In this document: positions 37,622-62,587 of the stretch, in pieces
Numbering within the stretch: the stretch's first letter is position 1
How the letters are laid out: the number at the start of each line of letters is the position of its first letter
DNA from: Dehalococcoidales bacterium
GTDB taxonomy: Bacteria; Chloroflexota; Dehalococcoidia; Dehalococcoidales; UBA1222
Assembly: GCA_016286345.1 (NCBI GenBank)
Contig: JAEESL010000001.1
Span: 50,219 to 114,218, forward strand
DNA: 64,000 bases
Direction: 5' to 3'
Notes under the pieces: generated by a model
What the model was told of the DNA's origin: nothing
What the model saw: the letters and a program-made list of their open reading frames with translations, nothing else
Databases searched by the model: none
Translations under genes and position numbers: made by a program

Positions 37622-38107
37622 TTATTTCTCCCTCGCAACAGTTATTGCACCGACAATTGCTGTGAGAATAATCAGTGCTGCAATTATTACAAGAAGCACA
37701 TATCCGCTCTGATCAAACAGGGTGACTCCCAGTACATCGGTTTCTGTGCCGATCGGTGATGTGGTTCCGCTGAATTTTGAAGTCAATGCAGTGTAGCATC
37801 CCAGTGCGGCTACACATAATGCACCGATGATCGCAGGTATCTTCAATTTGTTTGATTTGTTTCCTGCTTCATTCTGTTTTGTCATCATCACTGTCATGAT
37901 GATGAGAACAGCAACTGCACCGATATAAACCATTACCTGAATTATTGCCAGGAATTCAGCACTAAGTGTGATGAATATTCCGGCAACTGAAAGGAAACAT
38001 ATGATCAGAGAGAATGCTGATCTGATCACTGATTTAGCCTGAATTGCATATATTGCTGATCCCAGCAGTACAAGGGAGAGAATATAGAATGCAATCTTTA
38101 ATCCCAT
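37622..38107 (-). CDS. nuoJ: NADH-quinone oxidoreductase subunit J
   Basis: 161 aa with 5 hydrophobic helices. Its start overlaps the nuoI stop by 1 nt. Confidence 0.8.
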   Translation of the reverse strand: MGLKIAFYILSLVLLGSAIYAIQAKSVIRSAFSLIICFLSVAGIFITLSAEFLAIIQVMVYIGAVAVLIIMTVMMTKQNEAGNKSNKLKIPAIIGALCVAALGCYTALTSKFSGTTSPIGTETDVLGVTLFDQSGYVLLVIIAALIILTAIVGAITVAREK

Positions 38108-45689: not shown

Positions 45690-46376
45690 ATGTCAAAAGA
45701 GACAAACTTGGTTTCCCGACGAGAGTTTCTTAAAGATGCCGGACTTGTAGTTGGCGGTGCAACTGTAGGTTCTGCGGCATTACTCTCTGCTTGTAAAAAC
45801 AATGGCAAGAGCGGCAGTGTAACCAAATATGTATGTCCGCTCGATTCCAAGGAATTCGATTCATTACAGGCTTTAAAAGATCACTATGCATCAGCTCATG
45901 AAGGAGTTGCCTTACCTGATTTCAAGACATTGAACATCAATGGTGTTGATTATTCATTAATTATCAATGATTATTGGTCTCTTGCATGGGTATTACGTGA
46001 AACATTAGGACTTTATGGTACCAAAGTTGGTTGCGACATGGGTCAGTGCGGTGCTTGTACAGTCATCGTTGATGACAAACCTATGTATGCCTGTTTACTT
46101 TTCGCATGCGAAATGGAAGGAAAGAAGATCCGAACTGTTGAAGGTTTGGCTGACTATGGCAATAAGTTAAACAAAGTCCAGCAGGCTTTCCATGATGCTA
46201 ATGCTACACAGTGCGGTTTCTGTACTTCAGGCTTCTTGATGGCTGCTCAGGCTCTTATTGAACGCAATTCAAGCCCAAGTGAAGATGAAGTAAGACACGC
46301 ATTATCAGGACATCTCTGCATGTGCCAGAACTTTAAGAAGACAATCGAAGCGGTTGTCGCAGCAGGAGGTAAATAA
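45690..46376 (+). CDS. XDH/aldehyde-oxidoreductase family [2Fe-2S] small subunit with Tat signal and lipobox (module 1)
   Basis: SRREFLK twin-arginine motif, then LLSAC. 2Fe-2S motifs GCDMGQCGACTV and CGFCTSGF...CMC. Confidence 0.85.
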   Translation: MSKETNLVSRREFLKDAGLVVGGATVGSAALLSACKNNGKSGSVTKYVCPLDSKEFDSLQALKDHYASAHEGVALPDFKTLNINGVDYSLIINDYWSLAWVLRETLGLYGTKVGCDMGQCGACTVIVDDKPMYACLLFACEMEGKKIRTVEGLADYGNKLNKVQQAFHDANATQCGFCTSGFLMAAQALIERNSSPSEDEVRHALSGHLCMCQNFKKTIEAVVAAGGK

Positions 46377-48700
46377 TGGCTCTTCCTGAAATGAAAGTAA
46401 TGGGTTTAGGAACCCCGGGTAATGACAAAATCAGATCATTCTTTATGGATGACCTTTTGACTGGTAAACCTCGATTTGTCGGTGACCGACATTTCGCTGG
46501 TCAGCTTTATGCAGTTGCTAAGCATGCAACAGTAGATCATGCTAACATCACTAAAATTGACGCATCAGAAGCTCTCAAAGTTCCCGGCGTCGTTAAAGTT
46601 CTTACATATGATACCAACCCTGAATGGGCACGAACTGCCCCGATTCTTTACAAGACAGTACCTTTCTATGGCGCTCCTATTGCCCTGATTATCGCGACTG
46701 ACTGGTATATTGCACAGCGTGCAGTCAATCTTGTAAAGGTTGATTATGAAGTCCTTCCTGCCGTCATCAAGACAACTGATGTCATGGCTGATGATGAAGC
46801 AATGACCAGAGATACTTCAGCTCCTTTGAGCGGTAGATTTGCTGATTCCAACTTCCAGTCATCTGGTGTTACCAACCGAGGTGATGTTGATGCTGCCTTG
46901 AAGTCTGCTGCATACACCAGGACAATCAGTGATATGCCTTGGACTACACGATATCAGCATCAGCCTCTTGAACAGTATGAAGCACTTGCTTACTGGTCTG
47001 GTGATGAAGTTTATGTTTATATCGCTTCACAGAACATTCATGGTCATCATCGATCCCTTCACAATTGGACCGGAATTCCTTTGAATAAACTTCATGTCTA
47101 TTCTCCCGGCTGCGGTGGCGGTCTCGGTACACGACTTAACAACCCTGAAGCATTAATGGCAGTATTTGCATCCAAGGAAGTTGACGGACGACCTGTTCTT
47201 TACAAATGCACCAAGAAACATTCAATGCTTTTCGGCGGACGACAGTTTGATGCACGATCAGTTATCACTATCGGTTGTGATAAGGACGGCAAACTGGTCG
47301 CTCTGGATGTCAAATATGTCTGCAACGGCTATGGTGCAGGTATTACTCCTATCTTCTCCAAGACCTTAACTATCCCTAACATGAGATATGAAGGCACCAG
47401 ACTTTATCTTAATGATCAGGACCGATGTGCATGGCGTTGTGTTAATGATCCTCCTACTGGTTATCATTTCACTCATGCTCTTGATCTTGTTGCTGAAGAT
47501 CTCAACATGCGACCTGATGAAATCCGATTGAAGAATATCATGGGTGAACATGATGTTGATCAGGATTCAGGTCTTCCTTTCGGTACTAAGGAAGTCAATG
47601 CATGTCTTGATAAAGTACTTCAGGAGAGCGGATTCGCTTCCAAGTGGCACAAGCCCGGTACTAAGAAACTGGCAGATGGCCGACTCCATGGTATCGGTGT
47701 CCATTGTCATCATGATAGCCATGGCCGAATCGCTGGTTCTGACCGTGCTACTATCGTTCTTATGCTTCAGGATGGTACTGCAGCAGTTCTCGATGGTGGT
47801 TCTGCACCTCACAACCAGATGACTGAACAGGCTATCGTTGCAGCAGAAGTCCTCGGTCTTAAGATCGATGATGTCAAGACTCCTGTCTATGGTAACAGTG
47901 ATGCAACCCTCAACGGCGGTATGCATGGCGGTTCATCATTCACTGGTTCTACCGGTGGTGCTACCATGAAAGCAGCTGAACAGTGCCGAAAGCAGGTCTT
48001 TGAAGCTGCATGCAAGAATGCAACATTCTCTGCAGTAAATGCAAAACCTGAAGATCTTGATTCAAAAGATAGTGTTATCTTCCTTAAGAGAGATCCTTCA
48101 GTCAAAGCAACATTCGCTGCAATTTGTTCATCGGCTCTCAATCCTATCGGTGGCATTGGACACGGCTGGAACAACGTTGATGCAGACGGCACCGGCGGTT
48201 TACAGAGACCTAAGGATGGTTTCGAAGTCGGTCACAATACTGAAATGGGTTCTGCCTGCGCAGATGTCTGCGAAGTCGCAGTTGATCCTGAAACTGGCGA
48301 AGTAGAAATTCTCGAACACTGGAATGCAGTCGGTACCGGACGTGTTATCTACACCGACGGTGTACTTCAGCAGATGGGTTCAGGTACTGAACTTCAGGTC
48401 AACATGGCCCTCTACTATGGTGATATCAAAGATATTCCTACCGGTAATATTATCGGTACCCAGTACACTGAATCACAGATGATAACAACCCTCGACTGCA
48501 ACCCTTCACGATATCATCTGTATCCTATTGAAGGTGATAACCATACCGGTCCTCTCGGTGCTCATGGTATCGGTGAACCTTGTGTTGGTGGTTACTGCTG
48601 TATTCTCTCAGCAATCTATAACGCAATTGGTAAGTGGGTCGACACTGACCATGGTGCTTGTAACCCTGATAGAGTTCTCAAGGCTCTTGGAAAGGCATAG
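46376..48700 (+). CDS. XDH/aldehyde-oxidoreductase family molybdopterin-binding large subunit (module 1)
   Basis: 774 aa. GCGGGLGTR (compare GGGFGGK) and C-terminal GAHGIGEP, which holds the catalytic Glu context. Start overlaps the small-subunit stop (ATAATG). Confidence 0.85.
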   Translation: MALPEMKVMGLGTPGNDKIRSFFMDDLLTGKPRFVGDRHFAGQLYAVAKHATVDHANITKIDASEALKVPGVVKVLTYDTNPEWARTAPILYKTVPFYGAPIALIIATDWYIAQRAVNLVKVDYEVLPAVIKTTDVMADDEAMTRDTSAPLSGRFADSNFQSSGVTNRGDVDAALKSAAYTRTISDMPWTTRYQHQPLEQYEALAYWSGDEVYVYIASQNIHGHHRSLHNWTGIPLNKLHVYSPGCGGGLGTRLNNPEALMAVFASKEVDGRPVLYKCTKKHSMLFGGRQFDARSVITIGCDKDGKLVALDVKYVCNGYGAGITPIFSKTLTIPNMRYEGTRLYLNDQDRCAWRCVNDPPTGYHFTHALDLVAEDLNMRPDEIRLKNIMGEHDVDQDSGLPFGTKEVNACLDKVLQESGFASKWHKPGTKKLADGRLHGIGVHCHHDSHGRIAGSDRATIVLMLQDGTAAVLDGGSAPHNQMTEQAIVAAEVLGLKIDDVKTPVYGNSDATLNGGMHGGSSFTGSTGGATMKAAEQCRKQVFEAACKNATFSAVNAKPEDLDSKDSVIFLKRDPSVKATFAAICSSALNPIGGIGHGWNNVDADGTGGLQRPKDGFEVGHNTEMGSACADVCEVAVDPETGEVEILEHWNAVGTGRVIYTDGVLQQMGSGTELQVNMALYYGDIKDIPTGNIIGTQYTESQMITTLDCNPSRYHLYPIEGDNHTGPLGAHGIGEPCVGGYCCILSAIYNAIGKWVDTDHGACNPDRVLKALGKA

Positions 48701-48714
48701 TTTAGGAGGATACT

Positions 48715-49650
48715 ATGGATAACATTAAACATTATGAAGCTACATCTTTAGACGATGCTGTTTCCATCCTGGCCAAAGGCAAGGGAGCAGTTTGTGCCGG
48801 CGGTTCTGACCTGATGACTTACCTTAAGGGTTTCATCGTTGCTGATCCTCCGACAAACATTGTCGACATCAAACGAATTTCAGGTCTTTCTTACATTAAG
48901 AAAGATGGCGATACCCTCAAAATCGGTGCCTTGACTACATTGTATGAAATTGCAAACAGTGATGATGTAAAGAACAACTGTCCTGCACTTGCAGAAGCAG
49001 CCGGTTTAGTCGCTTCTCCTGAAATCAGATTCCAGGGAACTATTGGTGGTAATATCTGCCAGAAGCCTCGATGTATTTATTATCGAAACGAATTTGATGA
49101 TTATCCCTGCAAACGAAAGGGTGAATCCAGCATGTGCTATGCTGTTGCAGGTGTAAACAGATATCATTCAATTTTCGGTTTGAAAGACACCTGCATGGCA
49201 GTATGTCCTTCCGACACTGCACCTGTACTGGTAGCAGTTGGTGCTAAGATCGTTACCACTAAGAAAACATGGGATGCCAAGGACTTCTTCGTAATTAAAG
49301 GCGAACAGATCAACTCAATCGATGCTGACGAAATCGTCAAAGAGATCCAGGTTCCTGCAGCCAAGAAGAGTGTTTACAAGAAGTTTGCATTCCGAAAATC
49401 AATCGACTTCCCGTTGGTAAGCGTTGCAGTAGCACAGACAGGCAGCTCAGCAAAAGTAATCCTCGGAGCTTGCTTCAATGAACCTTATGAAATTGATGCA
49501 GCAGAAATCGCCGGTGGTAACTTCTCTGAAGCCAACGCTGAAGCAATTGCAGCCAAAGTCGATGCAAAAGCAAAGACAACAGCTCAGAATAAATACAAGG
49601 TTCAGATTGCAAAGACTCTTATCAAGAGAGCAATTCTTTCACTGGCCTAA
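48715..49650 (+). CDS. XDH family FAD-binding medium subunit (CoxM/PaoB-like) (module 1)
   Basis: 311 aa. AGGSDLM and TIGGNICQ motifs. Confidence 0.8.
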   Translation: MDNIKHYEATSLDDAVSILAKGKGAVCAGGSDLMTYLKGFIVADPPTNIVDIKRISGLSYIKKDGDTLKIGALTTLYEIANSDDVKNNCPALAEAAGLVASPEIRFQGTIGGNICQKPRCIYYRNEFDDYPCKRKGESSMCYAVAGVNRYHSIFGLKDTCMAVCPSDTAPVLVAVGAKIVTTKKTWDAKDFFVIKGEQINSIDADEIVKEIQVPAAKKSVYKKFAFRKSIDFPLVSVAVAQTGSSAKVILGACFNEPYEIDAAEIAGGNFSEANAEAIAAKVDAKAKTTAQNKYKVQIAKTLIKRAILSLA

Positions 49651-49730: not shown

Positions 49731-50387
49731 ATGAATATGAGTGCAGCAGAAAAGATCGGATCATTTATTAAGAACAATAAACTGAAAATTATATTCTTTG
49801 TAGTTGTTATATGTCTGTTTCCAACAGCTATGATCAAAGTTAAATGTCCTATTTGTTCTAATTCCGGTCAGCTTGAGACCAGTAAACTGTCTTCTGTCGA
49901 CATCCGTAATCTTGATGCAACAGTAGGGGGAGCATATTTTGCTGTCTGTGCGTCATACCGTGTTTATATAACGGATGTTACTGTTAAGCTTGTTAATCAG
50001 GCAACTGAACAGGCAAATGGGTATTTGAGTTTGTCTCTTATTGATTATGTGTCCGGACGAACACTGGATACTCAGTATGTCGTTGTTGATATTCCTCCAA
50101 AGAAGGAAATGAATGCTACATACCATTTGTTCTTCCAGACACAGGTCGATGATCCCAAAACGATTAAGATCAGTGCCAGACTTACCCATAATATGGCGGA
50201 AGACAAGGCATGTCACGGAACTGGTTATGTGAAGCTTAATGAATGGCCTTTGTGCTTTGCAATGAAGAAGAGTATTACTGAAGCTCAGAAGGTAGAAGTC
50301 TCAGAACCTGCATTTATTCCTCTGTTTGTTGCTCCTGAAGATTGGGATATTACTCAGCCTTTTGAACTGGATTCATATAATTTTTAA
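49731..50387 (+). CDS. Membrane-anchored hypothetical protein with split CxxC / CxGxG zinc-knuckle-like motifs
   Basis: 218 aa. TM helix IIFFVVVICLFPTAMI. CPICSNSG at aa ~39 and DKACHGTG at aa ~158. Confidence 0.55.
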   Translation: MNMSAAEKIGSFIKNNKLKIIFFVVVICLFPTAMIKVKCPICSNSGQLETSKLSSVDIRNLDATVGGAYFAVCASYRVYITDVTVKLVNQATEQANGYLSLSLIDYVSGRTLDTQYVVVDIPPKKEMNATYHLFFQTQVDDPKTIKISARLTHNMAEDKACHGTGYVKLNEWPLCFAMKKSITEAQKVEVSEPAFIPLFVAPEDWDITQPFELDSYNF

Positions 50388-50453: not shown

Positions 50454-51848
50454 TTATTCTGGTTTTACAATTTCAAGCAATTGATTAATGACAGGATCGA
50501 GCATGGATAAGTCATAACCGACTTTAATGGGTTTGATTGTCATTTCTGGTTCATACTCTACCACAGGTTCTTCTGCTGGCTCTTCGGTAACTTCTGATTC
50601 GTTGTCTTCGGAAACGGATTCAGTCTCTTCTGCTTCAGCTGCAGGGTCTTCAACTGCTTCATTATCTTCCACATTAACGTAAGCTGATATTTCATTATTG
50701 TCATTTATTATTGCAACTGAAGGAACATCATTGTCATTCTGTTCAATTGTACTGAGTTCTGTTTCAGGTATTTCATCGATTACAATCATGTTGACTGGCT
50801 TCGCCATTGTTTCAGGATCAATTTGTTCAGGTTTAAGATTTTCCTTAATACGTTCAGAATCAAATGCATCTCTGCTTAGAATATAAGTGCAGTATCGTGG
50901 TTCAAGAATGGCAGAGTGTCGCTTGATGGATTTAACACCTTTCTTGTTAAACCAGTCTGTTTCTTCTTCTACCTCAATGGCAATATCTGGTCTGCACATT
51001 CTGGTGTAGTCTGCAATAAGATTGATGTCATTGTAATCTTCTGCTGTGATGATAAAGATGTCAGGCCAGAGATTTGTTTCTCCCCATTTGTCTTTAATAT
51101 GATCGGTATTCAGCCATTCCTGATTGCGTGGAACTGACTGTGCCCTGAAGCATGGTCGGTGAAATTCACAGCGTATGCCTATCATCTTGGCCCAGTCTTT
51201 TTTCTTCAGAATGATTTTCGGTGTCAGAAGATTGCAATCTGCATCTTCTTCAAAAAGGATCTTGTTCGTGATTCTCGGCTGCGGAACTTTTTGTTCTTCA
51301 CCGCCGGTCGAATTGACTTCGAGATCAGTGCCTGATTTTGCACTGTTGAATGATTCCACGGAAAACATCTTTTCCGGGGCAAGTTTATTGACAATGCATA
51401 AAGTCAAAAAGTACTTGTATCCTTTTTCAAAGTAATCGGCACACTGCATTTTGACTTTTTCTCTTGCTTCTTTTTCATAATCATCTATTGTTTTATTGCC
51501 CTTGAATACATCGATAAGGGTAGTGTACAGCCCTTCAGAAATGAAATGTCTCGGACCGTCCAGGAAGTATCCGATTGATTTCTCCATCACGATTCCTTCG
51601 GGAGCAATCGTTGATGTTATTTCATTCTTTACTTTTTGCCAGTTAACGGATAGCTCTTCTGCGTCGGCTATTTCATCAGGAATTGTAGTATCGACAATAA
51701 TATCGTTGATTTTGTCGAATCTCTTGTAGAATTCTTGTCTGTAACCATCAGCCAGCATAGTGGAATTTTTTGTGAATTTGATATGATCGGGATTTTCTTC
51801 AACATACTTTACCAAATCTGAATAAATCTCGCGCCATTCCTCAGTCAT
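50454..51848 (-). CDS. Hypothetical protein (orphan family A) with acidic low-complexity C-terminal region
   Basis: 464-aa ORF convergent on molybdoenzyme operon 1. No motif recognised. Weak similarity, judged by eye, to the 427-aa ORF at 59042-60325. Confidence 0.6.
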   Translation of the reverse strand: MTEEWREIYSDLVKYVEENPDHIKFTKNSTMLADGYRQEFYKRFDKINDIIVDTTIPDEIADAEELSVNWQKVKNEITSTIAPEGIVMEKSIGYFLDGPRHFISEGLYTTLIDVFKGNKTIDDYEKEAREKVKMQCADYFEKGYKYFLTLCIVNKLAPEKMFSVESFNSAKSGTDLEVNSTGGEEQKVPQPRITNKILFEEDADCNLLTPKIILKKKDWAKMIGIRCEFHRPCFRAQSVPRNQEWLNTDHIKDKWGETNLWPDIFIITAEDYNDINLIADYTRMCRPDIAIEVEEETDWFNKKGVKSIKRHSAILEPRYCTYILSRDAFDSERIKENLKPEQIDPETMAKPVNMIVIDEIPETELSTIEQNDNDVPSVAIINDNNEISAYVNVEDNEAVEDPAAEAEETESVSEDNESEVTEEPAEEPVVEYEPEMTIKPIKVGYDLSMLDPVINQLLEIVKPE

Positions 51849-51997: not shown

Positions 51998-53931
51998 GTT
52001 TTTGACAGTTTTGATTGATAAAAACAGCCCGATTCGTGCCTAAAACGGCCGTTTTCCGGGCTTTAAAAACCACTTCGTTTTGTGGTAATTTCTTTTACTT
52101 TTTGGTCTTTGTACAGATCTTTTTCATTTCCCTGTTGCTGATTATCTGCCTGTCTGTCCTGAACCCGAACACTTCATGTAAGTCATCTGTCAGGTCTGTT
52201 CTGGTATACGCGGGTATGTATCCTTCTCCTTTCGCATCCAGCATCATCATCTTCCTGAGTGTCCCGATCAGCTCTTCACAGGTGTATTTTTCTCCCAGCT
52301 TCTTCTCTAATATCCTGTATATGATCATCGCCATAAAGCACGTCATAAAGTGTGCAGTTATCCTGTCTTTCCTGCTCATATATACAGGTCTTGATTTGAA
52401 CTCTTTCTTCATTATCCTGAAGCACTCTTTTATCTCCCACCTCTTCTTGTTGACCTCTATGATCGACTCAACTTCGTCTTCAAGGTTGGTGCATACCGCA
52501 TAAAAGCCGTCATATCTTTCTTCCTGATCTATCTTCTTGTTGTTTATGCCTCTTATCTTCTTTTCAGCCACTTCTCCGTTATCAGTACAGTACGTATCTT
52601 CGATAAAGCGCTTATAGTCGTTGGCTCTCATGTGATCCCTGTTTCCTGATACCGTCTTTATTGCTCTCTCAACCTGATTGTTCCTTACGTTTCTCTGGTA
52701 TTCCTGATACTTGAGTGAGTAGGAGACTATCAGCCTCTGCTCCAACCCGTCTTCATTTATCCATCTTTCCTTATAGAATACTTTGTCATAATCAGTGTTC
52801 GCATTGAGATCATTAAGGTTATATTCCTTCCTGGAGCCTTTGAGATGCCATCCTTCAGGACTTAAACAGTATTTCTGTAAATGACTTTTCATTTTCTTGA
52901 CCGACTGTACGGTTATAAAGCCTCTGTCTGCTACATCATTGAACCTGCGGTTGACTGTCGATGACAGTCCCGCATCAGTACATACTACGAACCTGCTCAT
53001 CCCGAAGTCAGATATCATCTTCTTCTCAAGAGGGGTCATCGTTGTCTGTTCGTTGGCATTTCCATTGAAGACGGTAAATGACAACGGTACACCGTCAGCA
53101 TCCATAAATAATCCCATCTGTACTATTGGGTTGGGCCTGTTTTCTTTGGAGTGTCCGTACTTCCTGAAGTCATCCTCTTCTTCTATCTCGAAGTAGAAGT
53201 TGGTGCAGTCATAATACAGGATTCCTTTCTTTCTGTTTATGACCTTAAGTGAGTTCTTATACAGTTCAGACTGTATATAATCGTTCTCCTTGCATAAGAC
53301 CTCCAGTCCTCTGTAAACATGCTGCAGTCTGAAAGTTTTCTTTTCCAGGTATCTGTCTGCTTCTTCATATGTCCTGAGCTTGGAGGCCGGATCAAGTATC
53401 CTGGAGTAGATGAGTCTGGAAAGGATATTATTCAGGTCATACTTGCACCTGTATTTTTCCATTATCTTCTCACATATCTTATCGAGTCCCAGTTGATAAT
53501 AGATATCCTGCAGAAAGAGATAACCGATGTTATATAATCGTTGTTCATTCTTCTCGAGTTGTCTGGTAGGAGAGTACTTGATGATGATATCCGCATTTTC
53601 CTCTTTTTCCTTACGAGTACACTCTATGGCATATTGTTTTGCCCATTCGTAAGGATCCATATCTCCGGCACGCTTTTTGACATCCTCAAGGGAACCCAGC
53701 TTTTCCACTGTCTTGGTAAAAGTCTTGGCACCGACTCTGACTGTTCTGGTGAGATAGAAATGCACTGTATTTTTGGTTCTTGTAATGTTTATCTTCATAT
53801 AGCACCTCTCATAGAAGTATTATACCATAAAAAATCACAAAACACCACAATAAATTAGAGAAAATTTGCATAAAAAAACAGGCTTTTTGTACCTGAATTC
53901 AAAAAAAGTCTATTTCCTAACTGTCAAAAAC
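51998..53931 (-). mobile_element. IS1634-family insertion sequence (approximate ends)
   Basis: 13-bp terminal inverted repeats GTTTTTGACAGTT (51998-52010) and AACTGTCAAAAAC (53919-53931) flank a 567-aa transposase gene. No clear target-site duplication seen. Confidence 0.65.
52095..53798 (-). CDS. IS1634-family DDE transposase
   Basis: 567 aa. N-terminus MKINITRTKN..YLTR..R.G.K, and DDE-region blocks YYDCTNFYFE, VVCTDAGL and RWEIKECFRIMK. Confidence 0.8.
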   Translation of the reverse strand: MKINITRTKNTVHFYLTRTVRVGAKTFTKTVEKLGSLEDVKKRAGDMDPYEWAKQYAIECTRKEKEENADIIIKYSPTRQLEKNEQRLYNIGYLFLQDIYYQLGLDKICEKIMEKYRCKYDLNNILSRLIYSRILDPASKLRTYEEADRYLEKKTFRLQHVYRGLEVLCKENDYIQSELYKNSLKVINRKKGILYYDCTNFYFEIEEEDDFRKYGHSKENRPNPIVQMGLFMDADGVPLSFTVFNGNANEQTTMTPLEKKMISDFGMSRFVVCTDAGLSSTVNRRFNDVADRGFITVQSVKKMKSHLQKYCLSPEGWHLKGSRKEYNLNDLNANTDYDKVFYKERWINEDGLEQRLIVSYSLKYQEYQRNVRNNQVERAIKTVSGNRDHMRANDYKRFIEDTYCTDNGEVAEKKIRGINNKKIDQEERYDGFYAVCTNLEDEVESIIEVNKKRWEIKECFRIMKKEFKSRPVYMSRKDRITAHFMTCFMAMIIYRILEKKLGEKYTCEELIGTLRKMMMLDAKGEGYIPAYTRTDLTDDLHEVFGFRTDRQIISNREMKKICTKTKK

Positions 53932-54468
53932 CCGTATCCAGAAGCAGGTCCATGTCTTTTCCTCCGCGACAGGTAAACTAACATGCTTTTAATTAATGAT
54001 AATGGATTATGAAGATAGATAAAAAGGTCCCTGTCGATCAATATGCCTAAATTGATATTCCTATATACATGAATGATCCATACAAATGATTAATCACCAA
54101 AATAGAACCTTTATACTCCGCTGACCTGCATTTTCATACTGAAATCAAAATAATTCCGATAATACCGATTATTATTTCTGATTAATAAATAATATTTTTA
54201 TTTTAGATAAGTTTTTATTATCGAGTCCAATAAAATACAGTTTTCGTCAATGGTCGCAAAAAGTGACTTTTATTACTTTTTGTAACTTTCGTGTCACTTT
54301 TTTTCATACGATAATCAACTTGACTCCAAGTCTTGCAACTTAACAATCCGCCTTACAAATTTAATTGAAGGACCACCTTTATCAAATGATAAATAAAAAA
54401 AATAATCATAAAAGGAGGTAGCTGAAAAGAAACATATTCTTTTTTCCCGGAATTATTAAGGAGGATTT

Positions 54469-55167
54469 ATGAAAGATAAAGACGAAGAAAAGGCGGTACT
54501 GTCAAGACGTCAATTTCTTAAGGACGCCGGTATCGTTCTGGGCACCTCAGCAGTCGGTTCAGCTGCTCTTCTTTCCGCATGCGGAACCAATGAAATAACC
54601 AAGACTGACACAGTCACAAAAACATCGACCGTGACCAAAAACGTCACGACTACCGTGGTAGAAAAAGAAACTCTGCCCCTGCCTATCGAAACAGAAAATG
54701 GCAGACTTCTGATCTCATTCACAGTCAATGGCAAGAAATTCGATGCCACAGTCGAACCCAGAGAAACCCTGCATCATCTGCTTCATGAACAGCTCGGATT
54801 CAAATCCGTAAAGACGTTCTGCAGCAGAGGCGGATGCGGTTCATGCAGCGTTCTTCTTGACGGAAGACCTGTTTTATCTTGCATGACTTTTGCATCATCA
54901 GTCGGAGGAAAAGATATCTGGACATCCGACGGCATCGGCAAGGAAATGCCTGAACTGATCGAAGCTTATATCGACAACGAATGTATGCAGTGCGGTTACT
55001 GCACTCCCGGTTTCATCGTAACTGCAGCTGCTCTTTTGAAACGTAATGGCAATCCTTCAACAGATGAAATAAGAGAGGCATTGGCAGGGAACTTATGCAG
55101 ATGCGGTACATATCCCGTCCACATCAAAGCAGTTCACGAAGCTGCCTCAGCAATGGGAGGTAAATAG
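54469..55167 (+). CDS. XDH/aldehyde-oxidoreductase family [2Fe-2S] small subunit with Tat signal and lipobox (module 2)
   Basis: SRRQFLK, then LLSAC, then a Thr-rich linker. 2Fe-2S motifs CSRGGCGSCSV and CGYCTPGF...CRCG. Confidence 0.85.
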   Translation: MKDKDEEKAVLSRRQFLKDAGIVLGTSAVGSAALLSACGTNEITKTDTVTKTSTVTKNVTTTVVEKETLPLPIETENGRLLISFTVNGKKFDATVEPRETLHHLLHEQLGFKSVKTFCSRGGCGSCSVLLDGRPVLSCMTFASSVGGKDIWTSDGIGKEMPELIEAYIDNECMQCGYCTPGFIVTAAALLKRNGNPSTDEIREALAGNLCRCGTYPVHIKAVHEAASAMGGK

Positions 55168-55169
55168 AG

Positions 55170-57581
55170 ATGGCTGATGAGTATAAAGACGATTTCTTAT
55201 ATGTAGGAAAAGATTACAGAAGAAAAGACGGCCCGGAAAAGGCGATGGGCACGGCGATCTATGCGTCTGATATCACACTTCCCAACTCACTGTTCGCAAA
55301 GGTCATGACCTGTCCCTGGGCTCACGCCAAGATCAAGAAGATGGACACATCCAAAGCTGAGAAGATCGAAGGCGTTGTCGACATCATAAGATATGATGAC
55401 CCTAGGATCAAAGATACCAAACTGATGTCATCATGGAACCATCCGTTTACTGCATATCTGACAGAAAACGTTGAAGAACTCAAGGATTTTCTTCCTTCCG
55501 AAGGCTTCTATGACGGCGAAGAAATGGGTGTGATCATCGTTGCAGAAAGCGAAGATATCTGCGAAGAAGCCATGAACGCAGTTGAAGTCGAATGGGAACA
55601 GCTTCCTTTTGTGCTCGATCCTGAAGATTCCATCAAAAAAGATGCTCCTATCTATTATCCCGGTAGAGAGACTATGATCGGCAATGGCAACGAGATCCCT
55701 GGATGTGAATTCTCCATGGGCGATGTTGACAAAGCATTCAAAGAATCCGATGAAGTTTGGACCGTACCAGTAGCAGAACCTATGATCAACTGGGTCGGTG
55801 CCGAAATGCCGCAGGTCACCTGTAATTGGGAGGGCGAAGACGTTGTTGTTTATGCCCACACCCAGCAGCCGTATGACCTGAGCCTTTATACTGCAGCCAA
55901 CCTCGGCCTCAAACAGTGCCAGGTCAAGGTCATCACACCATATTCAGGCGGTACCTTCGGTGAACGTGCTTTCGTCCAGCATTTCAATGATCAGGGCATC
56001 ACATACATTGCCGCAATGGTTGCCAAACAGCACAAGCGACCATGTAAATGCTTTATCAACCGGGCTGACCAGTTCCGGTCCGCCAGATCCCAGTGTTACA
56101 TGCATGGAGAGATCAAGATCGGTGCCAATAAGAATGGTAAGATCAATGCTGTCAGCATCAAGAACTTCACGTCCCACCAGAGAGCCGGTCTGTGGATCAC
56201 CGGCAGCGCATATTCCGGTTATGACCACTTCACAGACAATACCTGTGTCCAGAACATCAAGATGGAAGATCACTGTGCCGTAACATCCCAGCCGCCCGGA
56301 TGGTGGTTCAGATGTGAACAGAATATCGGTTCATACAACCTGGGTATCGTTAACAGTGAAGTTGCACATAAATTCGGACTCGATCCGACTGATGTCGCTA
56401 TCCTGAACAACGGTTATGAAGGCCACGATGTCGATTATCTGTACAACATCGCTAAAGAACACGGTCTTCCGACCCGAGACAGCCTCAAAGCCTGTATCGA
56501 GACCGGTAAGAAAGCTTTTGGCTGGGACAGCAAGTTCCATGCCGACGGAGCCAAGAAGCTGCCTAACGGCAGATATCATGGTGTAGGTTTCATCTGGGAT
56601 CATGCCTGGAATGACAATGTCAACACCATTACCGTCGGTCTCAGCCTCAACCAGGACGGTTCTGTCAACATCCTGGGACAGAGAGACGACCTCGGAACAA
56701 ATGATAAGACGACATATTCTCAGATAGCTGCCGAATGTATCGGTATCCCATATGAAATGGTGAACTACCGATGCGGAGATTCTACAGCTCCTTTCCAGTT
56801 AAAGAACCCCGGCGGTTCAATGGGTGTCATCTCACAGTCCAGAGGTATCATGAGAGCTGCAAAGAAACTGCGAACTGCGATCTTTGATAAGGCTCTTACC
56901 CTCAATCTTCCTGAATTCAAGGATGCAGTCGTCGATGACCTCGATCTCAAAGAAGGATATGTATTCAAGAAATCCGCACCGAATGCAAAAGTACATATTT
57001 CCGACATCGCAGCCACCTGTCTTCCTTATGCAACACAGCCTTGGGGCATTTCCTGCAAGGGAGTCATCATGGTCTACGATACGAACGTGACCAAACGAAA
57101 GTGGGGATATCCTGACGGCGGCACCCGACCGCGATTCGCACGACAGTGCCATTTCATTGAAGTCGAAGTAGATCCCGATACCGGTGAGATATTCATGACT
57201 AATATCAACAATGTTGTTGATGTCGGTGTTGTTATCTCTCCGAAATCCTGCAGAGGCCAGGCATATGGCGGTGCCATGCAGGGCTTAGGCCGAGCATATT
57301 CGGAAGAGTACATCTACGATAAGACCTATGGCGTGATCCTCAATCCTGATCTCCAGGAATACAAGATCGTAACTATGCTTGATTTTGAAACTGCCGAAGC
57401 AGAACTTGAAGAATCCCACAACGCCGGTGGTGAATGGGGCTGCGGTGGTATCGGCGAAGATGTCGCTACTCTTATCCCGGCAATTTTATCTGATGCTGTC
57501 AGAAATGCAATCGGCGTAAGCATCACAGAACAGCCGATCACCCCTGACAAGATCATCATGGCACTCAAGGATAAGAAGTAG
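55170..57581 (+). CDS. XDH/aldehyde-oxidoreductase family molybdopterin-binding large subunit (module 2)
   Basis: 803 aa. YSGGTFGER and a C-terminal GCGGIGED context. Collinear with the module-1 large subunit. Confidence 0.85.
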   Translation: MADEYKDDFLYVGKDYRRKDGPEKAMGTAIYASDITLPNSLFAKVMTCPWAHAKIKKMDTSKAEKIEGVVDIIRYDDPRIKDTKLMSSWNHPFTAYLTENVEELKDFLPSEGFYDGEEMGVIIVAESEDICEEAMNAVEVEWEQLPFVLDPEDSIKKDAPIYYPGRETMIGNGNEIPGCEFSMGDVDKAFKESDEVWTVPVAEPMINWVGAEMPQVTCNWEGEDVVVYAHTQQPYDLSLYTAANLGLKQCQVKVITPYSGGTFGERAFVQHFNDQGITYIAAMVAKQHKRPCKCFINRADQFRSARSQCYMHGEIKIGANKNGKINAVSIKNFTSHQRAGLWITGSAYSGYDHFTDNTCVQNIKMEDHCAVTSQPPGWWFRCEQNIGSYNLGIVNSEVAHKFGLDPTDVAILNNGYEGHDVDYLYNIAKEHGLPTRDSLKACIETGKKAFGWDSKFHADGAKKLPNGRYHGVGFIWDHAWNDNVNTITVGLSLNQDGSVNILGQRDDLGTNDKTTYSQIAAECIGIPYEMVNYRCGDSTAPFQLKNPGGSMGVISQSRGIMRAAKKLRTAIFDKALTLNLPEFKDAVVDDLDLKEGYVFKKSAPNAKVHISDIAATCLPYATQPWGISCKGVIMVYDTNVTKRKWGYPDGGTRPRFARQCHFIEVEVDPDTGEIFMTNINNVVDVGVVISPKSCRGQAYGGAMQGLGRAYSEEYIYDKTYGVILNPDLQEYKIVTMLDFETAEAELEESHNAGGEWGCGGIGEDVATLIPAILSDAVRNAIGVSITEQPITPDKIIMALKDKK

Positions 57582-57597
57582 GAGGGGGAAATAGACA

Positions 57598-58560
57598 ATG
57601 AAAAACTTTAAACAATATTATCCGACCACTGTTGATGAAGCAGCGAAATACCTGAAAGAAAATCCGAAGGATACCTATATTGTCGGCGGCGGCACTGATG
57701 TCATCGGTGCCATGAAGGATTTCATCTTACCTACTTATCCGGTCGCTTTGGTAAGCCTCGATAAGATCCCCGGTCTCACCGGGATCAAAGAGGAAGGCGA
57801 TTACCTTATCATCGGAGCCATGACTAAAGTTGAAGACCTTGCAATGAGTGATCTTCTGAAATCAAAGTACACATGTCTGGCTGAAGCAGCATCAAGAACG
57901 GCCTCTCCCCATCTGCGGGAATCAGGTACTGTCGGAGGCAACCTTTGCCAGATGACACGATGCTGGTACTTCCGACACAACAACAACCAGTTCGATTGTG
58001 TCCGAAAAGGCGGAAGCACCTGTTACGCTTTGACCGGTGAAACACGTTTCCACTCCATCTTCGGTCTGACCAAAATGTGTGCTGCAGTCAATCCTTCCGA
58101 CCTTGCTCCCGCAATGGTCGCACTCAATGCAGTTGCCGTTACCAACAAGAAGGAGATCCCCATCGAAAAACTGTGGTCATTTGCAGTCCCCGGTTCAACG
58201 ACTCTTGACCATGACGAGATCATCACATCATTCAAGATCCCCAAGTTCACCGGAAAGAGCTGTTTCTACAAAGCATCAGTCCGACGAACCATCGACTTCC
58301 CGATCGTAAACGGCGCATGTGCGATCGATGCATCCGGAAACGCAAGGATCTGCCTGAACGCAGTCGCGATGACACCTCACCGATGCACTGAAGCAGAAGA
58401 AACGATCAAAGGTAAATCGATCACAGAATCTCTTGCTGCAGAAGCCGGTGCAGCAGCAGTACAAAAGGCCAAGGCGATTCCAGGAACCGGTACCAGCAAT
58501 GAGTACAAGATCGAGATCGCCAAGGGTGTTATCAAGAAAGTAATACTCGGTTGTAAATAA
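57598..58560 (+). CDS. XDH family FAD-binding medium subunit (module 2)
   Basis: 320 aa. GGGTDVIG and TVGGNLCQ motifs. Confidence 0.8.
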   Translation: MKNFKQYYPTTVDEAAKYLKENPKDTYIVGGGTDVIGAMKDFILPTYPVALVSLDKIPGLTGIKEEGDYLIIGAMTKVEDLAMSDLLKSKYTCLAEAASRTASPHLRESGTVGGNLCQMTRCWYFRHNNNQFDCVRKGGSTCYALTGETRFHSIFGLTKMCAAVNPSDLAPAMVALNAVAVTNKKEIPIEKLWSFAVPGSTTLDHDEIITSFKIPKFTGKSCFYKASVRRTIDFPIVNGACAIDASGNARICLNAVAMTPHRCTEAEETIKGKSITESLAAEAGAAAVQKAKAIPGTGTSNEYKIEIAKGVIKKVILGCK

Positions 58561-58584: not shown

Positions 58585-58620
58585 GAAAAGCTCTCTCCGG
58601 TGTGAGAGGGCTTTTCGTTT
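58585..58620 (+). terminator. Rho-independent terminator after molybdoenzyme operon 2
   Basis: gaaaagctctctc cggtgt gagagggcttttc, a 13-bp stem with one G.U pair, followed by gttt. Confidence 0.65.
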
Positions 58621-58645: not shown

Positions 58646-59026
58646 TCAGCTTTCAGTTTTTTTCTCTTCTGCCTGGATCTCCGCAGACAGTTTATGCGCA
58701 AATTTGATATAACACTCCAGCATGGAATCGGTTTCCCACTGTTTTGCAAGTTCGGAATCTGCCGGTATATCTTCTTTCATATCGAGCATATGCAACAGAT
58801 GCTCTTCTTCTGTCTCATTGAGAGGGCAGTCTATCGCAAGACAATGTTCACGGCCATGACATATCCCGTCTTCAATGATCGTGTGTTTCACCAATGCCTG
58901 TCTCAGATAATCATCATAAAACGCCATATGTCTGACTTTATTGTTATAACCACAGACAGCAGCAAAGAACTGCTGTCCTGTCGGTAGATTCAGCTTTTTC
59001 CAATCCACATCATATATTTCTTTCAT
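58646..59026 (-). CDS. Hypothetical Cys/His-containing small protein
   Basis: 126-aa ORF placed 15 nt downstream of the 427-aa gene on the same strand. Contains the CHGREHCLAIDCP segment. Confidence 0.5.
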   Translation of the reverse strand: MKEIYDVDWKKLNLPTGQQFFAAVCGYNNKVRHMAFYDDYLRQALVKHTIIEDGICHGREHCLAIDCPLNETEEEHLLHMLDMKEDIPADSELAKQWETDSMLECYIKFAHKLSAEIQAEEKKTES

Positions 59027-59041
59027 CGATGATCCCTCTTG

Positions 59042-60325
59042 CTATTTTTCAGCGATGCAGTTCTGAGCGATCTGTCTGACCGGAGAACTGTCAAAGGCAC
59101 AGTTGATTATTCTGAGATTGTTGGAAGGTGTCGGAAGATCCAGGTTTTCACCGCCGGGTTCAGGAGGGATGAACACAACAAAATTACTGATCTGGGAAGT
59201 ATATTCATCGATCCATGCCGGAAGAGTGTTATAGAATCCGGCGATCTTCTTTCCGACTCCGATAACACTGTTGGGGATCCAGTGGCTGTCATGATCGGCA
59301 ACATGGATAGCATCCAATGCATTGCTATTCTTATAAAGCAGTATGGGATTCGCTTCCAGGACCGCTGCAGCCTTGCGGTACTCGACCTTTTTCAAAGATT
59401 CATTTGTAAATAAATACATCTCCTGCGGGACATAATTGATGGTCTGGACGCCGAAAAACTTTTTGTAATGTATGGATTCGCCCATGATATTGCAGAAAGC
59501 AACGGAATAAGGATACTGCGACTGCGAAAAATCGATCTCGTTATTCTCGGCAGGGATAGGTCCCGGGATCCTGTTGAACTTGACTGAGATCGACTGCTTA
59601 AGGTATTCCTTTCCGTCCATATTTTTCATTATCATCGAATAATACTGGGATATCTTGAACTCGTTGAGAAGAGTCATGACGATCCAGTTGCGATAGACAG
59701 CATCAAAAACGGTCTTGTATTTTTCCAGAATATTGCTGACAGCAGAATCCCTGAAAGCATTGAAATCATATTTTCCGACAAGCAGCATAAAAAGTATTTC
59801 ATAGCTGATATTATTCAGATATTGCATGGGGGCATGCGCCATCAGGTACTCTTCTGCCTTGGTATATATCAATTTTGCCTTAGGTTTTGAACCGGAAAGG
59901 TCATATCTCAGACGCTTCATAAAACCGGGCGTAGAATTGAAATCCTTGTAGAACTGTTCAAATTCATCTTCACTCACATCGATATCTTCAGAAATATTTA
60001 TCTTTGAATATGCGTCATAATGAAGACTGGAACGGCCATTGGGATTCCATTCAAATACCGGATGAAGGGGTTTCTCTGCGGCAGAGAGACTGCTGTCAGA
60101 TATCTTTTTCTCTGCATCGATGTAAACATCTCTCATATTCATAAGCAACGACAACATATCAGAACATTCCTCTGATATGAATGCCGAAAGGAACGAATCG
60201 CATACAGCGTAAAAATCCTTCTGCAGAGTCCTGGGGATCGACCGTGACTTCTCTGTGATCTTTATTTCGCTGTTAGCTTTGATAAAATCCTCAAGCGGAT
60301 CGAGTTTTTCCTGCCAATTAGCCAT
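59042..60325 (-). CDS. Hypothetical protein (orphan family A paralogue)
   Basis: 427-aa ORF convergent on molybdoenzyme operon 2. The N-terminus resembles the 464-aa ORF (M..W.E...L....N...IK.T..S.......FY..D). Confidence 0.6.
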   Translation of the reverse strand: MANWQEKLDPLEDFIKANSEIKITEKSRSIPRTLQKDFYAVCDSFLSAFISEECSDMLSLLMNMRDVYIDAEKKISDSSLSAAEKPLHPVFEWNPNGRSSLHYDAYSKINISEDIDVSEDEFEQFYKDFNSTPGFMKRLRYDLSGSKPKAKLIYTKAEEYLMAHAPMQYLNNISYEILFMLLVGKYDFNAFRDSAVSNILEKYKTVFDAVYRNWIVMTLLNEFKISQYYSMIMKNMDGKEYLKQSISVKFNRIPGPIPAENNEIDFSQSQYPYSVAFCNIMGESIHYKKFFGVQTINYVPQEMYLFTNESLKKVEYRKAAAVLEANPILLYKNSNALDAIHVADHDSHWIPNSVIGVGKKIAGFYNTLPAWIDEYTSQISNFVVFIPPEPGGENLDLPTPSNNLRIINCAFDSSPVRQIAQNCIAEK

Positions 60326-60384
60326 ATCGATAATTCTCTTTCAGTCATGAAATTCAGCATTCAGCTGACAGCAGACCGAACTGT

Positions 60385-61656
60385 TCAGCCGGAAAGTTCA
60401 TCTGCTTTTTTGATATATTCAGCTAAAGTCATCACTTTGCTGTTTTCGGTTTCTGATCTTGAGGTGAACGGGAAATTGATAATAAAGTTTTTCAGTCTCA
60501 ATTCATTCGGTTTCAATTCACTGTCCCTTTTTGAATACAGATAGATATGATATTTATACTCAGTCGGGATGATCGGTATGACCTTCAATAAACCGCCGAG
60601 CGTATCGATACCATGATCAGACGTCAGTGCAACATATGACTTGGAATGCAACAGAAATGAAAATGAAGGTGCAAATTCGGAGATGATCACATTGTTGCCG
60701 ATGCCATATTTATCAAGTATCGGTTCGAGCAGTCTGTACTCTTTGAAATTTCGCAACAGGATGGTACTGGATTTAAAATCAGAGATCTTTATATGCTCTT
60801 TTTCCGCAAGGGGATTGTCTGCAGACATGACATAACTTGCCGTATTCCCATACAGGAGGATCCTTTCATCAAACCTGTATTCTTCTTCGGATGAAGATAT
60901 TTTCAGATTGACTTCCTTGAGTCTTTCGGAATAAAGTTTTCCGATCTTCAACGCATATATTGAAACATCGGGATTCTTACCCATGTAATCAAAAATCAGC
61001 GAGGTCATCATATCCTTGTCGATATCGATCCCTGCACCCAGTATGACTCTCTTTTCAGTGAATTTTGATATGCCGCCTTTTACAGGTGAAGAAAAAGCCG
61101 TGTACAAACCGACGGGGATCGCCGAACAGAGTTTTTTCCCTAATTCGATATAACAATCCTTGTCACACTCCTTTTCGATCGAATCAAAGAAGACCTGCAC
61201 TGTCGTCAGTGAAAACATTTTCACGTCAAAAAGCATCTGGTCTTCTTTTTCTTTTTCTTCCCAATATGAAAGAGCGATGGACTTATAGTATCTTTCGATG
61301 TAGTTATAAAAATAAGTTCTGAAACAGTTCTGTCCCTGATATGTACTTATCGATTTATAGAATTTCTTGTCATTGGAAAAAATATTCGGGAGCAATTTTG
61401 TAACGAATTCCATCGGAGTCACAGTACTGATCTTTTCTTCGACATCATGAAAAAACACATAATTGAATAACGCATATTTGTCAGGGAAATAACGGTAGAA
61501 AGTCTGCCTGGAAGTCAGACTTCCGTCCATGATCATCTTAACCGTGATATCTTCGGCTGGATACTTACTGCACAATGATTTGGCAGTGTCGCAGAAACTG
61601 CGAAGCGTGACATTGAATTTAACCTGCTCAACATTATTAGCACACATGTTCACCAC
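60385..61656 (-). CDS. Transcriptional regulator: TetR/DhaS-like N-terminal HTH domain fused to a LysR-substrate-binding-like C-terminal domain
   Basis: HTH region ITVKMIMDGSLTSRQTFYRYFPDKYALFNYVF. The C-terminal ~220 aa show a PBP2/LysR_substrate-like pattern. The likely ATG start is at 61647; the ORF-track GTG start is at 61656. Confidence 0.6.
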   Translation of the reverse strand: MVNMCANNVEQVKFNVTLRSFCDTAKSLCSKYPAEDITVKMIMDGSLTSRQTFYRYFPDKYALFNYVFFHDVEEKISTVTPMEFVTKLLPNIFSNDKKFYKSISTYQGQNCFRTYFYNYIERYYKSIALSYWEEKEKEDQMLFDVKMFSLTTVQVFFDSIEKECDKDCYIELGKKLCSAIPVGLYTAFSSPVKGGISKFTEKRVILGAGIDIDKDMMTSLIFDYMGKNPDVSIYALKIGKLYSERLKEVNLKISSSEEEYRFDERILLYGNTASYVMSADNPLAEKEHIKISDFKSSTILLRNFKEYRLLEPILDKYGIGNNVIISEFAPSFSFLLHSKSYVALTSDHGIDTLGGLLKVIPIIPTEYKYHIYLYSKRDSELKPNELRLKNFIINFPFTSRSETENSKVMTLAEYIKKADELSG

Positions 61657-61738: not shown

Positions 61739-61786
61739 TTGTCACGCGAAGTGACAAATATGACCTGTTTGTCACTTACTGTGACA
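61739..61786. promoter_or_regulatory. Two TGTCAC-N5-GTGACA palindromic operator candidates in the divergent promoter region
   Basis: ttgtcac gcgaa gtgacaa (61739-61757) and ttgtcac ttact gtgaca (61769-61786), with centres about 30 bp apart. Confidence 0.5.
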
Positions 61787-61882: not shown

Positions 61883-62587
61883 ATGTTTGAATATCCTCTT
61901 CGTATCTTTGACAGAGTCCCGGTCATTGAACTGACAGGAGAGAAATTCATTATCGGGTTCGGCTGTCCTAAATCCTTCGGTTATCACGGTGTGAATCTGT
62001 GTGGAAAAAAAGTTGAAGTATATTCAAATGAAGACCTCACTGATGAGATAATCGAAAAAATGTGGACACTGCTCGGAGTCGGCAATGGCCTAACCGCCCT
62101 GATCGGCACAGATTTCCTTGCTGACTACGCAGTTGTGATGGATTACGCAAACAACAAGATCCAGTTCTGTGAAGAAGCTCCTGATTTTGAAGGAACAAAA
62201 ACAAACCTCGAGATGAAAGAAGGATATCCTGTTGCAGAATTCGTCATCAACGGAAATCCCGAGAAAATGATCATCGATTCCGCAGCCAAATTCTCCTGCC
62301 TCAACAGTGAACTGACCGCTGAATGTGAACAGATAACCACTAAGCAGAATTTTTTCATGAGATACAACTGTTTCAAGACTCATGTCACACCTATCTACAA
62401 TATCCCGGTGACAATAGACGAAGATACCGAAGATTATCAGTTCGGCATCTCATCACAGTATTCAAGGGAGATCTGCGATGAGATCGAGACCACCGGGATC
62501 ATCGGTTATGAATTCTTCAATAACTACAAGGTCTTGATCGACATGAAGAATGGTGTTTTAGGATACAGCAAAACACAGGCAGAATAG
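61883..62587 (+). CDS. Tandem retropepsin-like (clan AA aspartic-protease fold) protein, probably only one catalytic-type motif
   Basis: 234 aa from the ATG at 61883 (AGGAG 7 nt upstream). Two lobes end in ALIGTDFLADYAVVMDYANNKIQF and GIIGYEFFNNYKVLIDMKNGVLGY. Lobe 2 has IIDSAA; lobe 1 has IIGFGC. Confidence 0.55.
   Translation: MFEYPLRIFDRVPVIELTGEKFIIGFGCPKSFGYHGVNLCGKKVEVYSNEDLTDEIIEKMWTLLGVGNGLTALIGTDFLADYAVVMDYANNKIQFCEEAPDFEGTKTNLEMKEGYPVAEFVINGNPEKMIIDSAAKFSCLNSELTAECEQITTKQNFFMRYNCFKTHVTPIYNIPVTIDEDTEDYQFGISSQYSREICDEIETTGIIGYEFFNNYKVLIDMKNGVLGYSKTQAE

Follow-up and report, generated by a model that had tools for sequence, protein, structure and literature searches.

Here, we analysed a 64,000-nt stretch of a Dehalococcoidales genome (GenBank assembly GCA_016286345.1, contig JAEESL010000001.1, positions 50,219 to 114,218; hereafter 'the window'). 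Three consecutive genes on its minus strand encode a TetR-family regulator, a soluble protein of 427 amino acids (aa) and an acidic 126-aa protein with four conserved cysteines and four conserved histidines (Cys4His4). They converge on an operon for the iron-sulphur (FeS), molybdenum (Mo) and flavin adenine dinucleotide (FAD) subunits of a molybdoenzyme, designated operon 2 (Table 1). Our analysis shows that the last two genes belong to unnamed families, which recur in Dehalococcoidia-like bacteria beside xanthine dehydrogenase (XDH)-type enzymes predicted to be exported, and their products are probably enzyme-specific helper proteins. The same DNA is present in several rumen-type metagenome assemblies (JGI 3300041004, GCA_016648615.1, GCA_016295205.1 and others); on identical contigs, rpoB and rpoC lie just past the gene of a major facilitator superfamily transporter.

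An earlier inspection of the bare DNA (the sequence-only reading) had listed three minus-strand open reading frames (ORFs) at 60385-61656 (423 aa from a GTG start), 59042-60325 and 58646-59026, separated by 59 nt and 15 nt. All three ORFs and both gaps were recovered. A consensus terminator scan detected no terminator-like hairpin in either gap, as had been claimed, and its sole match within the unit, a weak 3-GC stem at 60179-60155, falls in the ORF of the 427-aa protein. The distance of 25 bp given for the operon-2 terminator had to be corrected: the hairpin between the convergent units is located 29 nt from the stop codon of the 126-aa gene and 24 nt from that of operon 2, and is predicted to be, probably, a bidirectional terminator. 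For the regulator, the ATG at 61647 is the more likely start compared to the alternative GTG at 61656 (423 aa), because public gene calls on identical contigs use it and a Shine-Dalgarno-like run, AGAGGTGGTG, is found just 5' of it.

The 427-aa and the 126-aa protein are both conserved at the protein level in other organisms, and an open frame of 427 codons in DNA with a GC content of about 41% is far beyond chance. The closest relative of this gene pair was found in another rumen genome ('MAG: Dehalococcoidales bacterium Tb.RUG.278'; locus L007). The view that all three genes form one conserved unit was not borne out, since the regulator has no detectable relatives and is absent from L007, the orthologous locus, where a two-component system is encoded nearby in its place; only the last two genes are a conserved pair. 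Co-transcription of the pair with the regulator gene and control by its product are plausible nonetheless, because the gaps are short, terminators are missing from them and operator-like palindromes occur upstream.

Table 1 Features of the window (coordinates are those of the window).
Feature	Position	Strand	Basis or remark
TetR-family regulator gene	60385-61647	minus	420 aa from ATG 61647
427-aa soluble protein gene, unnamed family	59042-60325	minus	exhaustive HMMER relatives and neighbourhoods
126-aa acidic Cys4His4 protein gene, partner of the 427-aa gene	58646-59026	minus	homologue alignment
Hairpin between convergent operon 2 and 126-aa gene	58585-58616		13-bp stem; terminator scan and sequence
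464-aa paralogue of the 427-aa protein	50454-51848	minus	hhalign against family profile: probability 100%, E 7.8e-39
Molybdoenzyme operon 2, three genes, FeS-Mo-FAD	54469-58560	plus	Pfam families
Operon 2, FeS subunit	54469-55167	plus	twin-arginine translocation (Tat) signal and lipobox
Operon 2, Mo subunit	55170-57581	plus	
Operon 2, FAD subunit	57598-58560	plus	Cys insert like that of 4-hydroxybenzoyl-CoA reductase (4-HBCR)/PaoB
Molybdoenzyme operon 1, same FeS/Mo/FAD layout	45690-49650	plus	FeS subunit with Tat signal and lipobox
218-aa protein gene, N-terminal transmembrane segment, Cys motifs	49731-50387	plus	between operon-1 FAD subunit and 464-aa paralogue
Two perfect 15-bp palindromes, GTCAC-N5-GTGAC	61741-61755 and 61771-61785		candidate TetR operators, centres 30 bp apart
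One-mismatch palindrome copy, GTCGCAAAAAGTGAC	54253-54267		precedes the first gene of operon 2 by about 200 bp

The 427-aa protein family

The 427-aa protein had been regarded as an orphan. This assignment does not hold, as an exhaustive HMMER search (E up to 1e-3) recovered 97 relatives and a 464-aa paralogue is encoded in the window itself. A word-index search with the 427-aa protein had returned identical copies only, a misleading outcome given the family recovered by HMMER. One relative, P0009, is 35% identical over the full length, the others share 20-42% identity and are mostly 350-400 aa long. The two 'hypothetical' genes of the window are paralogues, each converging on one FeS/Mo/FAD operon, namely operon 1 in case of the 464-aa protein. 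The latter has a highly acidic C-terminal tail, with aspartate and glutamate accounting for 98 of its 464 residues. Long-tailed relatives of this kind occur in loci of a GcvH/LipA type described below (L054, L056, L057 and L068). A further ORF upstream of operon 1 (44291-45367, 358 aa) was considered as a third family member and rejected (hhalign probability of 0.2%).

None of the 427-aa, 464-aa and 126-aa proteins yielded a Pfam match at E up to 0.1, and the 427-aa protein had no NCBIfam match either. Comparing 40 family members with Pfam at E up to 5 revealed no consistent family, and the family profile gave no credible match to PDB sequences. The best match in the PDB profile searches with both families, an arylalkylamine N-acetyltransferase (E 8.6e-4 over 58 profile positions), is not credible. 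Family members are annotated as 'hypothetical protein' in their source records and our literature searches retrieved no description of the family.

The AlphaFold2 model of the 427-aa protein, based on a 40-sequence alignment (predicted local distance difference test (pLDDT) 82, predicted template modelling score 0.82), is a confident one and comprises a helical domain (residues 1-75), a disordered insert (89-132) specific to the branch formed with P0009, a helical region (134-223) and an alpha/beta domain (227-427). A Foldseek search with this model against the PDB returned nothing significant (best E 0.33), and neither a transmembrane segment nor a signal peptide was detected in the protein. 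The only invariant polar residues in the 40-sequence alignment are Y211 and D344. So few invariant polar residues, together with fast evolution, fit a binding protein better than an enzyme.

But, could the alpha/beta domain act on nucleic acids? The family might adopt a fold like that of PD-(D/E)XK restriction endonucleases and either regulate the adjacent operon by binding DNA or be a nuclease. In an alignment of 102 members, D344 is present in 97, P351 in 97 and D352 in 90, while 57 have an acidic residue at position 356, 40 have lysine or arginine at position 358 and 61 have E312. This spacing fits E...D-x11-(E/D)xK and resembles a decaying motif. The order of secondary structure elements in residues 316-385 of the model is compatible with an alpha-beta-beta-beta-alpha-beta core, and about ten of the top 50 Foldseek matches are nuclease domains of XPF/ERCC1/Hef or BsaWI, but with E values of 2.6-7. 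The motif is, however, far from invariant, and the 427-aa protein of the window retains D344 only, with K312, N352, G356 and G358 at the other positions. None of the structural matches to a nuclease fold reached significance, and no Pfam PDDEXK or helix-turn-helix family was matched by the 40 members at E up to 5. A role on nucleic acids also leaves unexplained why family members pair one-to-one with enzymes and stand next to XdhC and YqeC (see below). We thus consider it rather improbable.

The Cys4His4 protein

In the 126-aa protein, a Cys/His motif had been noted, and we found it as CHGREHCLAIDCP at residues 56-68. The protein was said to be otherwise unrecognisable; yet it has homologues with 30-57% identity, which form an unnamed family. 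The residues C25, H33, C56, H61, C62, C67, H76 and H79 are invariant in the protein and ten homologues, and would suffice for two zinc sites or an FeS centre. Profile searches of Pfam, NCBIfam and the PDB gave no match to the 126-aa protein. The quality of its AlphaFold2 model is modest (pLDDT of 70), and a Foldseek comparison with the PDB found no significant match.

Homologues of the 126-aa protein are encoded directly downstream of a member of the 427-aa family in five independent places, i.e. in the window, L007/L008, L027, L031 and L037. Among metagenomic loci with enough downstream sequence, this holds for only three of 38.

Genomic neighbourhoods and enzyme pairing

We combined individual look-ups of loci (L007, L009/L010 and L011-L013) with a metagenome scan that added 53 loci; upstream counts refer to the 32 metagenomic loci whose upstream sequence spans 1 kb or more. 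In 21 of these 32 loci, the family member comes right after the FAD subunit gene of an FeS/Mo/FAD operon and shares its strand, 32-813 nt separating the two genes; XDH-family subunits are present in 23 loci overall. The individually inspected loci show related arrangements. P0009 is encoded divergently from an FeS/Mo/FAD operon, and the gene after it specifies a homologue of the 126-aa protein with 119 aa (L007), P0010 follows the operon and a 187-aa gene on one strand (L009/L010), and P0012 follows the operon directly, again on one strand (L011-L013).

In four loci, XdhC is the gene just before the family member (L058, 717-5204; L067, 3-2636; L061; L069). YqeC is also found upstream in L058 and L067, fused to a methyltransferase domain in L058, and L058 additionally has an upstream YqeB-like gene, which was recognised by eye and gave no Pfam hit. 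XdhC, YqeC and YqeB are accessory genes of selenium-dependent molybdenum hydroxylases. A search for homologues of these three in the 64-kb window found none.

The neighbours of the family extend to other enzymes. Five loci (L051; L054, 4172-9589; L056; L057; L068) encode a GcvH-like protein with Tat signal and lipobox together with LipA, then the family member and then an uncharacterised, Cys-rich protein of 374 aa. Export of a lipoylated H-protein would be out of the ordinary. A Carb_kinase-like gene, the family member and a reductive dehalogenase (RdhA) with Tat signal follow each other in L065 (5534-8320) and L060 (7001-9856), and L040 resembles these two loci except that RdhA is missing. 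Of 21 complete FeS subunits adjoining family members, 19 display the Tat motif S/T-R-R-x-F-L, many of them along with a lipobox.

Taken together, these neighbourhoods tie the 427-aa family to XDH-type operons as well as to XdhC and Tat substrates. The sequence-only reading had suspected a functional tie between the three-gene unit and the adjacent molybdoenzyme. For the 427-aa gene this tie is strong, as XDH operons or XdhC stand beside the family in most loci. For the 126-aa gene it is weaker, with five places after a family member on the one hand and two contigs with a solitary copy at ruvX/yceG on the other hand. The functional link of the 427-aa family to XDH-type molybdoenzymes and their maturation genes is the robust result of our study.

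The family also appears to follow its enzymes individually. Two members, each beside its own operon, were found in the window, in L029, in L035 and on contig PVBE011328469.1 (L031 and L043). Pairwise identities within the family correlate with those of the adjacent FAD subunits (r = 0.50, 15 pairs; 5 of 2000 Mantel permutations reach this r), a correlation that includes shared species history and is supportive only. L031 and L043, the paralogues from one genome, have the same nearest neighbours in the family and in the FAD data set, and co-segregate with their own enzymes.

Given such a close association, is the 427-aa protein simply another part of the enzyme? It might be a fourth, non-catalytic subunit or partner, either hitch-hiking through the Tat system like the Mo and FAD subunits or acting as an adaptor for docking or electron transfer. 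The last position in the operon with short gaps, seen in most loci, would fit this idea, and so would the single copy per enzyme and a tree congruent with that of the FAD subunit. Against it, the protein evolves far faster than the enzyme (35% identity compared to 81% for the Mo subunit between L007 and the window), and the family has no conserved Cys/His cofactor motif. Moreover, on four short contigs members stand beside XdhC or YqeC and no structural enzyme genes were detected there, the family also accompanies the unrelated enzymes RdhA and GcvH, and in the window and in L007 its gene is transcribed separately. A role as subunit hence seems improbable to us, about to the same degree as one on nucleic acids.

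The comparison with L007 is informative in another respect. Judged by sequence identity, the enzyme of L007 is the orthologue of operon 2 and not of operon 1: its Mo subunit shares 81% identity with operon 2 and 26% with operon 1, its FAD subunit 77% and 40%, and its FeS subunit 69% and 38%, respectively. The accompanying pair is only 35% (427-aa-like protein) and 44% (126-aa-like protein) identical to that of the window, and is placed divergently upstream of the enzyme operon in L007 as opposed to convergently downstream in the window. This indicates that the linkage was kept through rearrangement and that divergence of the accessory genes has far outpaced that of the enzyme. It also bears on the possibility that the three genes of the window are an independent, regulator-controlled unit unrelated to the molybdoenzyme, whose adjacency would then be incidental. 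Such a reading could draw on the convergent orientation, on the unit's own upstream regulator with its palindromes and on 126-aa homologues in housekeeping neighbourhoods elsewhere. Against it, the linkage to XDH operons recurs over dozens of divergent loci, the pair stayed beside the orthologous enzyme and its conservation does not extend to the regulator. The comparative data already largely refute an incidental adjacency, which we regard as highly improbable.

Proposed role of the protein pair

What, then, is the task of the two proteins? We tentatively favour the reading, with a probability of roughly 45%, that they are a cytoplasmic accessory pair for the enzyme-specific assembly or holding of the neighbouring three-subunit molybdo-flavoenzyme of the XDH family, which is predicted to be Tat-exported and lipid-anchored. 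The 427-aa protein would bind the apo-enzyme or the FeS subunit with its Tat signal in the cytoplasm, hold this client until molybdenum cofactor (Moco; via XdhC-type factors), FeS clusters and FAD are in place and the subunits have come together, and after that let the enzyme go for Tat export. The Cys4His4 protein would be a metal-binding partner in some lineages. Chaperone mechanism, metal binding, co-transcription and the targets of the regulator are all points that we infer from the genomic data. An assembly or holding factor is the most economical mechanism; it would work alongside XdhC-type chaperones and be analogous to redox enzyme maturation proteins (REMPs) that proofread Tat substrates.

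To our knowledge, REMPs have been described for Mo-bisPGD (bis-pyranopterin guanine dinucleotide) enzymes and not for the XDH family. XdhC-type chaperones are commonly regarded as all that XDH-family enzymes require for maturation, and we know of no factor for their Tat proofreading.

XdhC is a known Moco chaperone, typically encoded by the last gene of xdh operons (PMC10609526), and PaoD (YagQ), likewise a Moco-insertion chaperone, has as its client an XDH-family enzyme that Tat exports to the periplasm (PMC10609526). The 427-aa family shares with both the position as last gene of the operon and, as proposed here by analogy, the nature of a cytoplasmic, enzyme-specific accessory factor. It differs in that the 40 members did not match the Pfam families XdhC_CoxI (PF02625) and XdhC_C (PF13478) at E up to 5. 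The genuine XdhC of L058 scores 1.5e-45 in the same library. A Rossmann-type Moco-binding domain is likewise not evident in the family. As a family member stands beside a genuine XdhC in four loci, the family complements XdhC and does not replace it.

REMPs such as TorD/DmsD/NarJ and NapD are proofreading chaperones that bind Tat signal peptides (PMC3316669, PMC4464133). Like these, the 427-aa family has one copy per Tat-exported cofactor enzyme, is predicted to be cytoplasmic and occurs with Tat substrates of different cofactor types. That it would bind the signal peptide of its enzyme has indirect backing only, in the Tat motifs on 19 of 21 neighbouring FeS subunits. In contrast to REMPs, the 427-aa protein is about twice as large, has a C-terminal alpha/beta domain and lacks homology to them, and one operon associated with the family (L035) encodes no Tat signal. 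A TorD-like protein would be all-helical, about 200 aa long and covered by Pfam Nitrate_red_del; the 427-aa protein, with its greater length, mixed helical and alpha/beta model and no Pfam or PDB match, is not of this type.

Several observations argue against the proposed assembly role. (i) The 427-aa protein shows no similarity in sequence or fold to XdhC, TorD/DmsD/NarJ or NapD. (ii) The partly conserved E...D...(E/D)xK residues of its C-terminal domain and the weak Foldseek matches to restriction-endonuclease folds hint at another ancestry or activity. (iii) The gene pair lies outside the enzyme operon both in the window (convergent) and in L007 (divergent). (iv) The Tat signal missing from the L035 operon also counts here. 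(v) The 126-aa homologue stands alone between ruvX and yceG on two other contigs with no family member nearby, and on one of them no gene of the XDH family was seen within 10 kb; a further homologue, located on another short contig, has no adjacent family member either.

A more far-reaching version of the proposal is that the 427-aa family represents a new, Dehalococcoidia-centred class of chaperones for maturation and proofreading of Tat substrates, with XDH-type enzymes, RdhA and lipoyl-GcvH as clients and the Cys4His4 protein as metal-dependent co-factor. We deem this broader version unlikely, and the probability remaining beside all readings weighed here belongs to functions outside them.

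Exported redox enzymes of Dehalococcoidia are hard to study, and with the 427-aa family this group now has a specific candidate, open to experimental test, for a new factor that helps in assembly or export. If a Tat-substrate chaperone class were true, it would supply a possible missing ingredient for obtaining active exported redox enzymes of Dehalococcoidia in heterologous hosts. Should the proposed assembly mechanism hold, a new protein family would be performing a known kind of job, i.e. system-specific enzyme maturation. Our findings overturn nothing, but give those who study the maturation of molybdoenzymes or the physiology of Dehalococcoidia a clear lead that can be tested.

The regulator and candidate operators

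The first gene of the window's three had been described as coding for a fused regulator, of which the TetR half stands. Residues 23-66 match Pfam TetR_N (PF00440) with E 1.7e-5 and 24.9 bits (gathering cut-off 24), TetR_C_8 stays under the Pfam cut-off, and NCBIfam DhaS (TIGR02366) scores 60.9 bits compared to an equivalog cut-off of 129. PDB matches are confined to residues 13-101 and comprise the DhaS-type TetR proteins 4mk6 and 2iu5. By these matches, the N-terminal 170 residues or so are a DhaS-like TetR domain. The protein departs from DhaS-type regulators in staying under the equivalog cut-off, in lacking detectable close relatives and in some 240 additional C-terminal residues, a domain that DhaS does not have. 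The fold of this domain is uncertain and possibly LysR-substrate-like. Its match to LysR_substrate (PF03466) is weak (E 0.008, 16 bits compared to a cut-off of 28, residues 269-389) and the C-terminal half has no PDB match, so the fusion remains tentative. A word-index search of 5.8 billion proteins returned identical copies of the regulator only, and on this sequence evidence it is lineage-specific.

The two perfect palindromes listed in Table 1 read TTGTCAC-N5-GTGACA in a longer form. Both fall in the 235-bp stretch between the regulator gene and its divergent upstream neighbour, are the only perfect matches to GTCAC-N5-GTGAC in the window and belong to its densest cluster of GTCAC half-sites. 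The regulator would probably control its own gene through them and may also act on operon 2, upstream of which the one-mismatch copy and a further half-site, GTGTCAC at 54291, are found. Shuffled sequences gave an expectation of 1.38 palindromes with at most one mismatch per 64 kb, i.e. an estimated 0.014 or so in the 670-bp intergenic region of operon 2. We treat the copy as a candidate operator shared with the regulator gene, and as a lead only. The palindrome was also sought in the L007 intergenic region, where it is absent.

Divergently from the regulator, a 234-aa gene (61883-62587, plus strand) has a weak match to retropepsin-like aspartyl proteases (E 0.004, under the cut-off). In the ORF listing this frame extends to 352 aa and then overlaps the regulator gene.

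Neighbouring operons and other genes

The Pfam families Fer2_2, Ald_Xan_dh_C/MoCoBD and FAD_binding_5/CO_deh_flav_C cover all three subunits of operon 2, which places the enzyme in the XDH/aldehyde oxidoreductase family. NCBIfam matches of both operons are to the XDH family as well (E 1e-37 to 1e-90), all of them below equivalog cut-offs. Both FeS subunits start with a Tat motif, a lipobox and a Thr-rich linker, the N-terminus in operon 2 being SRRQFLK...LLSAC. Owing to Tat motif and lipobox, both enzymes are predicted to be exported and lipid-anchored, like a periplasmic enzyme of the PaoABC type. With E. coli PaoABC and 4-HBCR, the window enzyme shares three subunits carrying two [2Fe-2S] clusters, FAD and Moco; the Tat signal on its FeS subunit recalls PaoA, and its FAD subunit is closest to 4-HBCR beta, including a Cys-rich insert. 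It differs from both in NCBIfam scores far below the equivalog cut-offs, in the gene order FeS-Mo-FAD and in the lipobox plus Thr-rich linker.

The 218-aa protein encoded next to operon 1 has homologues in the same position in L052 (85-666) and L066 (6363-6833), and is possibly an additional component with an accessory or anchoring function. An insertion sequence element coding for a 567-aa DDE_Tnp_1 transposase (52095-53798, minus strand) separates the 464-aa paralogue from operon 2 and might have played a part in the unusual convergence of genes seen here. The window also carries a nuo operon of the 11-subunit type. Inside it, a 645-aa fusion (38107-40044, minus strand) of an Fer4 (NuoI-like) part with a pyridine-nucleotide-disulfide oxidoreductase/NAD-binding part constitutes an unusual complex I module.

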